This document shows, one piece after another, positions 2,775 to 6,975 of a DNA stretch of 64,000 nt; position 1 is the first letter of the stretch; the number at the start of each line of letters is the position of its first letter. Origin of the DNA: Spirochaetaceae bacterium. GTDB lineage: Bacteria > Myxococcota_A > UBA9160 > UBA4427. The stretch spans positions 6,945 to 70,944 of the forward strand of contig JACKFD010000009.1 of NCBI GenBank assembly GCA_020632655.1, in the 5' to 3' direction. The position numbers and the translations under genes are program-made. The notes under the pieces were generated by a model that did no database searches, was not told where the DNA came from, and saw only the letters and a program-made list of their open reading frames with translations.

Positions 2775-2942
2775 GGCGGTGGACGCGTGGAGCTGCGTGC
2801 GATCTGCGCCGGGCGTGCGGCCCGTACGGACCTTGTCGGGCCGTCGAGGCCTGGTGGCCGTCGGCCCGATTGAGTCCGCCGCCGAGACGACCGATGGGAG
2901 GCGGTGTCGGCGAGGGCGCCCGCCGGGTCGAGGAGGTTCGCC

Positions 2943-3395
2943 ATGTCCCATCGACGGTCCCAGCGACGCGAGGCCGGCCAGGCGAGCGGCTCGCTCGTGC
3001 TGTTGCTCGTGATCCTCTGTGTCGGCGGCGCCTTCAACTACCATCGGAATCTGCAGCGCGAGCGCGATTCGGAACGCATCCGACCCTACAAGGCCTACGC
3101 GGTGGCGGACCTCGAGGCGCTTCGCGAGGCCTATCGCGCGGAGCTCGAGAGCTCGCGCCGAAGCTTCCAGAGCGCGCAGCGTGCCCGCGCCGGTACGGCC
3201 CGGGACGCCGGCTCCGTCGGACGGAACATCGCCCAGTTCGATCGGACGGCCGCCGCGAGTCGCTCGATTCGCGACGCGGCATCGCAGGTGGCCCAGCGCG
3301 AGGGCCAGATCGCCGAGCTGGATCGCGAGATCCGGCTCCGCAGCGACCTCGGTCAGGGCCTGATGCGGCACCTGCGACGGCTCACGACGATCTGA
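2943..3395 (+). CDS. Hypothetical membrane-anchored coiled-coil protein
   Basis: Track ORF 2904..3395. ATG 2943 lies 7 nt after GAGGAGG. One N-terminal TM segment ('GSLVLLLVILCVGGAF') is followed by a charged, heptad-like helical region ('LEALREAYRAELESSRRSFQSAQ...QIAELDREIRL'). I recognise no family. Confidence 0.5.
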   Translation: MSHRRSQRREAGQASGSLVLLLVILCVGGAFNYHRNLQRERDSERIRPYKAYAVADLEALREAYRAELESSRRSFQSAQRARAGTARDAGSVGRNIAQFDRTAAASRSIRDAASQVAQREGQIAELDREIRLRSDLGQGLMRHLRRLTTI

Positions 3396-3428: not shown

Positions 3429-4214
3429 TCAGGAGTCCTCGAGATCGTCCGAGTCGTCGTCGACGTCTTCCTCGATCTCGATCACGTCGCCCTCGGGCTC
3501 GTCGAACATGTCGTCGGGCGAGCCCAGGTCGTCGAGATCCAGATCGTCATCGTCGCTCGCAGGCGCCTGCTGCTCCTCGTCGTCGAGCAGCTGTGCCATC
3601 GGCCGCACGACCTTCGGGCGCGGCGGCTCCGGTGCGGGCGCCTTCGGCTCCTCGGCGGGGCGGTCGCGCTGGTCGGCGCCGCATTTCGGACAGATGGGCT
3701 CTTCCTTGCCGAGGTCGTAGAACTTCGCGTCGCAGCCGAAGCAGGACCACTTGAAGCCGAGCTTGGGGTGGCGGGGGCCGGTCGGGGTCACGGGCTTCTT
3801 GGGTCGCGATCGCTTGGGGGTGGGTGCGGCGTCCGCTGCGCTCTCTGCTGCGGCCGACTTCGAGGAGCCCGACGACCGGGTCGACGAGCTCTTCTTCTTC
3901 GCCGCCGGGGCCTTCGGGGCGGTCGTCGGCTTCGCGGCCTTCTTCGGTGCCTCCGGTGCGGGGGCGTCGGCCGTGGCCTTCGCGGCCTTGGTCCGGGGGG
4001 CGGCCTTGCTCTTGGCGGCCTTCGGCGCCTTGGCGGCCTTCTTCTTGGGGGCCGCTTTCGAGGCGGCCTTCTTCGTCGTCTTCGCCGGCGCCTTCTTCGC
4101 AGCCTTCTTGGTCGTGCTGCGAGCCTTCTTCGTGGTCCGCTTGGGACTGGCCGAGGCCTTCTTCTTGGTCGGCCGGGCCTTGGCCTTCGAGCTCGTCTTC
4201 TTGCTCGGACTCAT
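3429..4214 (-). CDS. FYDLN_acid (TIGR02300-type) zinc-ribbon protein with a long histone-H1/AlgP-like Lys/Ala/Pro-rich N-terminal extension and a poly-acidic C-terminus
   Basis: Track ORF 3429..4274; the likely start is ATG 4214 ('[10 protein letters not shown]'). The core is '[25 protein letters not shown]', that is CxxC-(K)FYDL(N/G)-CxxC. The C-terminal tail is '[51 protein letters not shown]'. About 150 N-terminal residues are KKAAK/AKAPK-type repeats. Confidence 0.8.
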
Positions 4215-4537
4215 GCGTCTGTCTCCGCCGTCTGTCGCCAGTCTGTCCGTGACCGTTGCCGTGGCCGCGGGCATGGCCGTCCGGGACCGGCCGCACCCGA
4301 TCCGCGTCCGATCGGGCCCTTGGAGCGCTGCGCAACGCGCCGGCCGGCTGCCGGGCGCCGCTTCTCGTTCGCGGGCGCCCGTGCTTGTAGCCGTTCACTG
4401 CGCTCGGGGCCAGTCCCGGGACGACCTCCGCGCCGAGTCCAGCACCTCGGCGGCGCTGGAGACCGACCACGACGGCAGGACGGGCGCTTGCGGGCTTACT
4501 TGCAGCTCGTGGCCGGGATCGGCCCGTCGCCAGGATC

Positions 4538-4585
4538 CCGATCTTCTGATTTACATAATATGTCTTATCGGTGGTGATTGATTCG
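4538..4585 (-). promoter_or_regulatory. Sharply AT-rich island inside a 476-bp non-coding gap; candidate promoter or regulatory site for the FYDLN_acid gene
   Basis: 'gatcttctgatttacataatatgtcttatcggtggtgattgattcgg' is about 33% G+C by hand count of 4541-4580, in a roughly 70+% background. The minus strand reads '...GATAAGACATATTATGTAAATCAG' and contains a TATTAT -10-like hexamer, but there is no convincing -35. Confidence 0.25.
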
Positions 4586-4690
4586 GAGTCCGGCCACCGG
4601 GATCCCCGCGAGCCATCCGCCTCGCGTGCCTACGCCCTGGCGAGCCCGCGGTCCTGCCACCCGTCACGGGCCGGAATCCCGATCCGCTGC

Positions 4691-5589: not shown

Positions 5590-6975
5590 CTAGCCGTCCT
5601 CTCCGGCGCCGGGGCCCCGGCGACCGCTCCGTCTTCGCAGCTGGATGCGGACCGGTGTGCCCTCGAAGCCGAAGCTCTCTCGCAGGCGGTTCTCGAGGAA
5701 GCGGACGTAGGAGGTCTGGATCGAGCGCGGATCGGTGCAGAAGACGACGAAGGTCGGCGGCCGGACGGCGACCTGCGACGCGTAGAAGAGCTTGTTCGGT
5801 CGCTTGGCCGCGCCCCGACTCGCCATCGACGGCGGATGCTTCTCGGCGACGTCGCGCAGCCAGCGGTTGAGGTCCGCCGTCGGGACGCGCTGCTCGGCGG
5901 CCGAGGCGACCTTCTGGAGTCGCTCGAATAGCGTCCCGAAGCCGGCACCGGTCCGCGCCGAGACCGCCAGCACGGGGACGTCCGACATGAAGCGGAGCCC
6001 GTGGGCGATGTCGGCGAGCACGTCGCGCCGCCGGTCTCGGGCAACCCGATCCCATTTGTTGGCCAGAACGACGGCGGCGCAGCCGTGCTCGCGCACCAGC
6101 GAGGCGACGCGCGCGTCCTGATCCGTGATGCCTTCGGCGGCGTCGACCACGAGCAGCGCGACCTCGGCGCGCTCGAGCGTGCGGAGGGTCATCAGCGCAC
6201 CGCCGTGCTCCCCGGGTCCCTGTCGTCGGCCGACCTTGCGCAGGCCGGCCGTGTCGACGAGCACGTAGTCGCGACCGTCGCGGGTGATCGCGATGTCGAC
6301 GGCGTCTCGCGTCGTGCCCGGCGAGTCTGCGACGACCGTCCTCTCCTCCCCGACGAGGCGATTCGCGATCGAGCTCTTGCCCACGTTCGGCCGACCCACG
6401 ATCGCCACGCGCAGCGCCTCGTCGCCTGCCATGCGAGCGGCGTCCGCATCCTCCCATGCCTCCGCGGGCAGCGCTTCGACGACGTCCTCGAGCGCATCGA
6501 AGGCACCGCCCCCGTGCTCGCCCGACACGGCGAAGGTGCGCTCGATGCCGAGCCGGAAGAACTCGTGGACCCGCTCCTGGTGATGCATCGGCTGATCGAT
6601 CTTGTTCACCAGCAGGGCCAGCGGCTTGCCCGACCGACGCAGGGTCGCGGCGATCGACTCGTCCTCGGGTACGAGCCCCTGCTTGCCGTCGACGACGAAG
6701 AGGATCACGTCGGCGCTCTCGACCGCCGAGCGTGCCTGGGCCTGGACGGCGGCGTCGAGGCTCTCGCCTCGAGCCGGGTCGAGTCCGGCCGTATCCACCA
6801 GCCAGATCCGTCGCCCCGCCACCTCGATGCGTTCCGCGATGCGATCACGCGTGAGTCCGGGTTGGTTCGCGACGAGCGCGCGTCGATAGCCCGCATAACG
6901 ATTGAAGAGCGTCGACTTGCCGACGTTCGGACGGCCGACGAGGGCCACGACGGGGAGTCGGAGGGGCTGGCTCAT
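5590..6975 (-). CDS. der: Ribosome-biogenesis GTPase Der (EngA), double G-domain plus KH-like C-domain
   Basis: Track ORF 5590..7176, with ATG 6975 ('MSQPLRLPVVALVGRPNVGKSTLFNR'). The second G-domain is 'LRVAIVGRPNVGKSSIANRL...DTAGLRK'. The DTAG and NKxD motifs are each present twice. Confidence 0.95.
   Translation of the reverse strand: MSQPLRLPVVALVGRPNVGKSTLFNRYAGYRRALVANQPGLTRDRIAERIEVAGRRIWLVDTAGLDPARGESLDAAVQAQARSAVESADVILFVVDGKQGLVPEDESIAATLRRSGKPLALLVNKIDQPMHHQERVHEFFRLGIERTFAVSGEHGGGAFDALEDVVEALPAEAWEDADAARMAGDEALRVAIVGRPNVGKSSIANRLVGEERTVVADSPGTTRDAVDIAITRDGRDYVLVDTAGLRKVGRRQGPGEHGGALMTLRTLERAEVALLVVDAAEGITDQDARVASLVREHGCAAVVLANKWDRVARDRRRDVLADIAHGLRFMSDVPVLAVSARTGAGFGTLFERLQKVASAAEQRVPTADLNRWLRDVAEKHPPSMASRGAAKRPNKLFYASQVAVRPPTFVVFCTDPRSIQTSYVRFLENRLRESFGFEGTPVRIQLRRRSGRRGPGAGEDG

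Follow-up and report, generated by a model that had tools for sequence, protein, structure and literature searches.

The FYDLN_acid family (PF09538/TIGR02300) is widespread, with members in Alphaproteobacteria, Myxococcota and Acidobacteriota, among others. The canonical short forms, such as those of Alphaproteobacteria, Myxococcus xanthus and Thermoanaerobaculia, carry a CxxC-x3-KFYDL-x-CPxC ribbon after an LGxK motif, followed by a short basic or linker segment and then by a disordered tail rich in Asp and Glu. Lys/Ala/Pro tails of the H1-like kind are known from AlgP and PhaF of Pseudomonas, Hc1 and Hc2 of Chlamydia, the HupB/MDP1 tails of mycobacteria and the basic domain of CarD in some myxobacteria. 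In the delta subunit (RpoE) of the Firmicutes RNA polymerase, a lysine tract is combined with a long polyacidic disordered tail, which mimics nucleic acid and contacts the lysine tract in cis. Among eukaryotic proteins, the acidic tail of HMGB1 folds back on the basic part that binds DNA and thereby weakens this binding, and histone H1 and prothymosin-alpha form a very tight, fully disordered complex.

The window analysed here, that is, the whole stretch of 64,000 nucleotides of DNA, has a G+C content of 70.5% and holds a complete coding sequence for a long form of the FYDLN_acid protein at 3429–4214 on the minus strand, recognized from its ORF translation and a Pfam match. The open frame comprises 261 codons and a stop codon (3429–3431). 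The identical 261-aa protein was called on the NCBI contig JAGQJS010000003.1 of assembly GCA_020430525.1, a genome assembled from metagenomic data and assigned to an uncultured member of the Myxococcota. The ATG at 4214 is preceded, at a spacing of 8 nt, by a Shine–Dalgarno (SD) sequence, GGAG (4223–4226, minus strand). All of the following parts lie on the same strand. Residues 1–141 (3792–4214) form a basic disordered arm of degenerate in-frame repeats, delimited by composition, GC content by codon position, repeat periods and pLDDT. Some gene callers begin a 120-aa 'short form' (P0091) at an internal GTG (Val142; 3789–3791). The folded core (3645–3785), marked out by invariant residues and a pLDDT of 74–89, consists of a conserved lead-in and a C4 zinc ribbon (C158, C161, C175 and C178, with the motif KFYDLG); the ribbon proper spans residues 158–178 of the ORF translation (3681–3743). 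A conserved linker motif at residues 201–214 (3573–3614), kept across the order as RPMxxLLDDEE, includes a short helix at 208–211 predicted by AlphaFold2. By composition, the acidic disordered tail begins at residue 212 and runs to residue 261 (3432–3581), and a conserved MFD motif lies within it (3498–3515).

The composition of the two ends was strongly opposed. The arm contains 38 Lys, 7 Arg, 40 Ala and 17 Pro, with only four acidic residues and a net charge of +41, and is made almost entirely of Lys, Ala, Pro, Ser and Thr. The tail contains 19 Asp and 8 Glu in its 50 residues and no Lys or Arg, for a net charge of −27. The isoelectric point, computed separately for each half, was 11.9 before the ribbon (residues 1–157) and 4.1 after it (residues 179–261), and the whole 261-aa protein has a net charge of +16. 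Lysine makes up 27% of the arm, compared to 1.5% of the product of the neighbouring SLT gene, and a six-frame scan of the whole 5.29-Mb genome placed its densest lysine window in the arm (22 Lys in 60 residues), a density far above chance. The composition and the Pfam match thus bear out the central claim of the preliminary description, which saw in a single polypeptide a strongly basic Lys/Ala/Pro half, a FYDLN_acid ribbon and an acidic tail.

The gene is a local ortholog of the FYDLN_acid zinc-ribbon/acidic-tail protein. PF09538 matched residues 150–257 (profile positions 4–97 of 105) with 45.2 bits, against a cut-off of 23.9, and scored 48.9 bits in the whole-genome scan. The two CxxC pairs that characterize PF09538 (C158/C161 and C175/C178) surround K164-F-Y-D-L168 in the place of [KR]FYDLN, the last residue of the motif being Gly rather than Asn in the clade of the window, and residues C158, C161, F165, Y166, D167, L168, C175, P176 and C178 were invariant across 98 aligned sequences. 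The C-terminal low-complexity region of the family, about half Asp and Glu, corresponds to residues 212–261. The narrower assignment to TIGR02300 in the preliminary description was not upheld, with scores of 22.0 bits (full length) and 23.6 bits (residues 140–261 alone), against an equivalog cut-off of 41.65; on the same model, a protein of the M. xanthus type scored 40.0 and an alpha-like member (P0089) 60.3. Canonical members are short (~95–150 aa), with the ribbon at the extreme N-terminus, about 8–12 residues from the start; here, 157 residues precede the first Cys of a protein of 261 aa. The net charge also differs, at +16 rather than about −19, as does the motif, which reads FYDLG rather than FYDLN. 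The chromosomal neighbourhood, on the other hand, is that of the canonical short forms of Myxococcota. The 261-aa protein is a lineage-specific variant of a catalogued family, and not a new system.

The likeness to the other described proteins is looser. Residues 1–141 share with the bacterial H1-like and AlgP-like proteins a Lys/Ala/Pro composition (about 25% Lys, 25% Ala and 12% Pro), degenerate repeats, predicted disorder and the nature of an appendage on another module; they differ in having no detectable homology and in standing on the same chain as a polyacidic tail. A search of Pfam and NCBIfam returned no H1-type family, such as NF038053 or the linker-histone domain, for the 261-aa protein at E ≤ 1; the best score for NF038053 (hist_H1_lk_Burk), E = 0.19, was obtained on a relative. 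The earlier label 'H1/AlgP-like' therefore holds as a description of composition and not as a statement of homology. The delta subunit is alike in its small folded head, lysine tract and long polyacidic disordered tail; however, its head is a HARE-HTH and not a zinc ribbon, the sequences are not similar, and the basic part of the present protein lies at the N-terminus and has about ten times the length. HMGB1 and the H1/prothymosin-alpha pair have oppositely charged disordered segments in common with it, but are eukaryotic and unrelated in sequence, and serve as analogues of the inferred competition in cis only.

To accept the arm as part of the protein, the start at 4214 has to be accepted. 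Public gene calls of 118–124 aa for this gene and its close relatives (P0091–P0096), which include NCBI records under the name 'FYDLN acid domain-containing protein', begin at an internal GTG or ATG and omit the entire basic arm. If these calls were right, only the 120-aa form from the GTG (Val142) would be made, and the Lys-rich region would be an untranslated leader, a reading that we consider extremely unlikely. The GC content of the arm at codon positions 1, 2 and 3 was 0.49, 0.70 and 0.91; at the third position (GC3), the arm and the remainder of the gene had the same value, 0.908, and the neighbouring gene had 0.875, and the upstream gap was flat across positions (0.66–0.74). The arm showed an AAG/GCC codon periodicity, with AAG used for 37 of its 38 lysines. 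No SD sequence lies ahead of the internal GTG, and the position equivalent to Val142 is Ile, Leu or Gln in several relatives. The relatives share conserved starts at the head of the arm (M-S-P-S/T-K-K-K or M-A-A-S-K-K-K), and in at least 12 of them a stop codon stands 0–10 codons upstream of the conserved SD and ATG. A search that was blind to reading frame, for an SD sequence, 4–11 nt and an ATG with the conserved second and third codons, gave a single match at the locus of each of the 18 relatives, and every match shared the reading frame of the ribbon. The distance from this start motif to the first Cys codon ranged from 357 to 570 nt and took 16 distinct values, and it was a multiple of three at all 18 loci. 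These sequence features indicate that the ATG at 4214 is the start, as the preliminary description had assumed, and that the arm is coding and the 261-aa gene real; the 118–124-aa versions look like mis-called starts. Annotation pipelines sometimes cut such genes to the usual length of the family, and over half of the protein is lost in the process.

The distribution of the arm was examined at three levels. Within the phylum, the family was present in 129 of 251 sampled Myxococcota genomes, and in 39 of the 41 genomes of the order to which the window belongs. Most of the loci read in this order were long-armed, with 100–180 residues in most members; in four (L005, L011, L016 and L021) the arm was still basic at 37–41 residues. 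Both the length (37 to ~180 aa) and the sequence of the arm were hypervariable across the order, and the composition alone was conserved. In the remaining classes of the phylum, a short form of 95–150 aa with the ribbon 8–12 residues from the start was encoded at 26 of the 27 loci read. The proteins of Myxococcus xanthus and Anaeromyxobacter are short as well. More broadly, an exhaustive search of 1.84 billion cluster representatives (50% identity), with the ribbon and tail as the query, returned 938 matching representatives; among the best 150 of these, 82 had a basic N-terminal extension of 50 aa or more (median 120), whilst 54 were short. The median net charge was +16 for long forms (n = 135) and −19 for short forms (n = 138). 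Compensation between the charges of arm and tail was not found, the correlation (r = 0.36) being opposite in direction to neutralisation.

The nearest named records were all metagenome-assembled genomes (MAGs), labelled as Myxococcota or 'Deltaproteobacteria' bacterium, UBA4427 or TMED88, and a few carried Spirochaetales labels that are evidently mistaken. Four loci labelled 'uncultured Spirochaetaceae/Spirochaetales bacterium' (L099, L115, L118 and L119) nevertheless group with the Myxococcota clade of the window, and their labels look wrong; the protein of L099 is the same as that of a genome of the same genus (G013). The preliminary description had asked whether the Lys-rich extension is specific to a lineage, and the census shows that it is. 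Most members of the family do not already carry the extension, so the arm is specific to a clade, and the long N-terminal arm is confined to one order of uncultured Myxococcota.

The preliminary description had called the gene a fusion, and on this point the comparison gave a different answer. The order FYDLN / convergent gene / SLT / GHL10 / queA / tgt was common to loci encoding the 261-aa, 214-aa and 119-aa forms, and the long form at the same chromosomal place as the short forms marks the gene as an ortholog and not as a new fusion gene. The arm repeats are degenerate, with periods of 9, 15 and 33 nt, all multiples of three, which explains rapid in-frame changes in arm length. Taken together, the shared synteny, the short basic intermediates of 37–41 aa and the repeat structure point to expansion in situ. 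The arm thus appears to have arisen ahead of the ribbon, from a few basic residues, by in-frame duplication of units of 9, 15 and 33 nt. Its presence shifts the net charge of the protein from about −19, as in the short forms, to about +16. The convergent gene (window 2904–3395, plus strand) encodes a protein of ~145–150 aa that has a single membrane helix at its N-terminus, a coiled coil and no Pfam match, and adjoins FYDLN and SLT across Myxococcota, next to both long and short FYDLN forms (L022, L026, L077 and L078).

Lys-rich repeats were found at other positions in other families. In three loci from other Myxococcota families (L061, L064 and L066), repeats of the AKKAPAKK type follow the acidic tail at the C-terminus, with a GC3 of 0.91–1.0; L063 and L067 also have C-terminal repeats, with a lower GC3 (0.85 and 0.67). 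In L075 and L041, from a sister family of the same class, a Lys-rich stretch separates the ribbon from the tail. The orthologs with C-terminal repeats are the mirror image of the layout in the window. As the repeats stand at different positions in different families, a polycation would have been added to FYDLN_acid more than once, and their place at the C-terminus or after the ribbon speaks for recurrent expansion and against domain fusion. Repeated Lys-rich gains at the other end of the protein suggest that the function of the family benefits from a polycation in cis.

Upstream of the gene lies a non-coding gap of 476 bp (4215–4690, minus strand), in which the GC content is flat across codon positions and which extends to a yfgM-like gene. 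At the position of the gap, between the yfgM-like gene and FYDLN, 18 relatives of the same genus (L015, L017, L018, L026 and 14 further loci) hold a gene for a 226-aa exported protein on the same strand as FYDLN and without a Pfam match. No remnant of this gene was found in the gap or elsewhere in the genome of the window. Since the gene is absent from the whole genome and held by 18 relatives of the same genus, the gap looks like a deletion scar. The preliminary description was right that an unusually long gap is present; its alternative, that the 476 bp form a leader, fits less well, and the gap looks mainly like the scar of a lost gene. Searches of the gap found no Rfam family (E ≤ 1; one match at chance level lay outside the gap), no tRNA, no sigma-70-like promoter and no convincing terminator.

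One element in the gap was conserved. GACTGG-N17-GAACGGCTACAAGCAC, of 35 nt (4381–4415, minus strand; 167–200 nt before the ATG), is shared by 21 loci of the same genus in which its flanks are not conserved, and is a candidate promoter or operator. It shows no sigma-70 consensus, and a reading as a sigma-54 or ECF promoter was dropped after inspection by eye, as neither the spacing nor the bases were conserved. The second half of the element, with the bases that follow, is similar to the PNGYKLERFV codons in the UDP-sugar pyrophosphorylase gene found upstream in sister families. In one such locus (L078), a UDPGP-family gene (PF01704; 4514–6004) overlaps the start codon of FYDLN (6001–6645), which suggests translational coupling; this upstream UDPGP gene has been lost from the genus of the window. 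Judged by this resemblance, the 35-nt element may be what is left of a UDP-sugar pyrophosphorylase gene, now serving as a promoter or operator. An AT-rich island is also present (37.5% G+C over 4538–4585) and holds GATAAGACATATTATGTAAATCAGAAGAT at 4541–4569 on the minus strand. A stretch of 33 nt at about 4550–4582 is 82% identical to the spacer right after the yfgM-like gene in L026.

Structure prediction was performed with AlphaFold2 and the alignment of 98 sequences. The model was confident only at residues ~140–190 (pLDDT 74–89), with two short strands, and gave a tentative helix at 208–211; the arm and the tail were disordered, with a pLDDT mostly below 50 in the arm. The ~45 residues around the four cysteines are thus the only part predicted to fold. 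A Foldseek search of the PDB returned generic small zinc ribbons only (such as S27e and Rpb12), with a best E of 4, and the best match of a profile search among PDB sequences had an E of 0.29. The 261-aa protein has neither a signal peptide nor a membrane segment. In the literature (FYDLN, TIGR02300 and PF09538, as well as H1-like, Myxococcus and zinc ribbon terms), only mentions in tables were found, and no paper on the function of the family. One paper shows that a FYDLN_acid gene is kept in the reduced genome of Liberibacter and contains a variable GAA repeat (PMC11649586).

The best explanation of these results, which we hold as moderately probable in its entirety, combines the expansion of the arm by repeats with a tethering role for the arm, a competing acidic tail and a conserved partner. 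The protein would be cytoplasmic. The polycationic arm would bind polyanions without specificity, most likely chromosomal DNA, and so tether the conserved ribbon to the nucleoid, where the ribbon, the helix of the linker motif and the MFD motif would contact a partner conserved across the family. The polyanionic tail would act as a mimic of nucleic acid in competition with DNA, either for the protein's own arm, a self-inhibition on which salt or ligand would act, or for basic surfaces on the partner. We infer the binding of DNA or another polyanion, with competition from the tail, and the case for DNA is argued purely from composition. The neighbouring genes gave no link to chromatin, being UDP-sugar pyrophosphorylase, SLT and der/yfgM in the myxobacterial loci and aroA-cmk/rpsA/ihfB at an alpha-like short form. 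At the locus of the latter (L179, encoding P0089), FYDLN_acid and a fused aroA-cmk gene are divergent neighbours, and rpsA, sppA and an IHF/HU gene come after the latter, a neighbourhood quite unlike the myxobacterial one. The literal form of the earlier suggestion, in which the acidic half was likened to a histone chaperone, can be set aside, since no histone-fold gene (PF00808) was found in the 91%-complete genome by a search that recovered the archaeal controls.

Lysine-rich tails are not restricted to this gene in the genome of the window, and this bears directly on the meaning of the arm. Five genes with such tails (genome G000; C9:39195–41150(+), C27:157236–160283(−), C1:422324–425320(+), C22:23836–26265(+) and C24:146718–147251(−)) were recorded. 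The tails occur on DNA enzymes, namely topoisomerase I (C-terminal) and a RecQ-like helicase, and also on the metabolic enzymes GlmU (C-terminal) and pyruvate phosphate dikinase (N-terminal ARKAGKTAKTT repeats); given the latter two, such a tail by itself is no mark of a nucleoid protein. In the RecQ-like helicase, the Lys/Ala N-terminus is followed by four acidic TAAELIEDDDER repeats. A small coiled-coil protein of the same genome has a Lys-rich low-complexity tail as well. The arm could accordingly be a generic habit of the lineage without a role at DNA, which binds another polyanion (polyphosphate granules, rRNA or ribosomes) or serves as a solubility or entropic spacer, the protein then functioning as the short FYDLN_acid forms do. 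The tails on GlmU and pyruvate phosphate dikinase would fit this, as would an arm that varies from 37 to ~180 aa within the order with nothing but its composition conserved, and the H1-like protein AlgP of Pseudomonas has reportedly been seen at polyphosphate granules. A mere habit is harder to reconcile with an arm that has stayed in frame throughout ~80 clusters (50% identity) and that forms the densest Lys tract of the genome, and the independent gains at the other terminus suggest selection tied to the FYDLN_acid protein itself; we regard this reading as somewhat unlikely.

A bolder form of the argument would make FYDLN_acid proteins polyanionic mimics of nucleic acid that regulate a conserved DNA or RNA enzyme, with a polycation gained in cis independently in several lineages of Myxococcota. 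The results would be single-chain polyampholytes that either neutralise themselves or undergo condensation with DNA; they would represent a novel type of nucleoid protein and a bacterial one-chain analogue of the H1/prothymosin-alpha pair; we think this distinctly unlikely. A related reading, which is a shade more doubtful still, has the FYDLN_acid core bind RNA polymerase or a DNA enzyme while the tail mimics nucleic acid, as in delta (RpoE) or the gyrase inhibitor YacG, and the arm merely raises the local concentration on DNA. It would account for the layout of the short forms (for example ...KGGGRKRKPAEPEEEEE...), in which a small folded head is followed by a short basic patch and a polyacidic disordered tail, in parallel to the lysine tract and acidic tail of delta. 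One member is named 'predicted nucleic acid-binding Zn-ribbon protein' in a JGI record, and the family is retained in the reduced Liberibacter genome (PMC11649586). However, Foldseek and the profile search of the PDB gave no similarity in sequence or fold to delta or YacG, and the loci read showed no co-localisation with genes for RNA polymerase or gyrase. A further reading, drawn from the neighbourhood, would give the protein a role in the cell envelope or in UDP-sugar metabolism, where it would act together with the UDP-sugar pyrophosphorylase to which it is translationally coupled in sister families: L004, L006, L009, L013, L043, L093 and L097 have the UDPGP gene immediately upstream and on the same strand, in L078 this gene overlaps the start of FYDLN, and the SLT and GHL10 genes are conserved downstream. 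Such a role is very unlikely in our view, as the coupling is absent from the window's own genus and from other phyla, the protein lacks a signal peptide or membrane segment, and the family is far more widespread than the UDPGP neighbourhood.

Polycationic tails, gained repeatedly at either end of the protein, are a concrete hint, open to testing, that FYDLN_acid proteins may act at or close to DNA or another polyanion, and their orthologs offer natural pairs with and without the arm for experiments.
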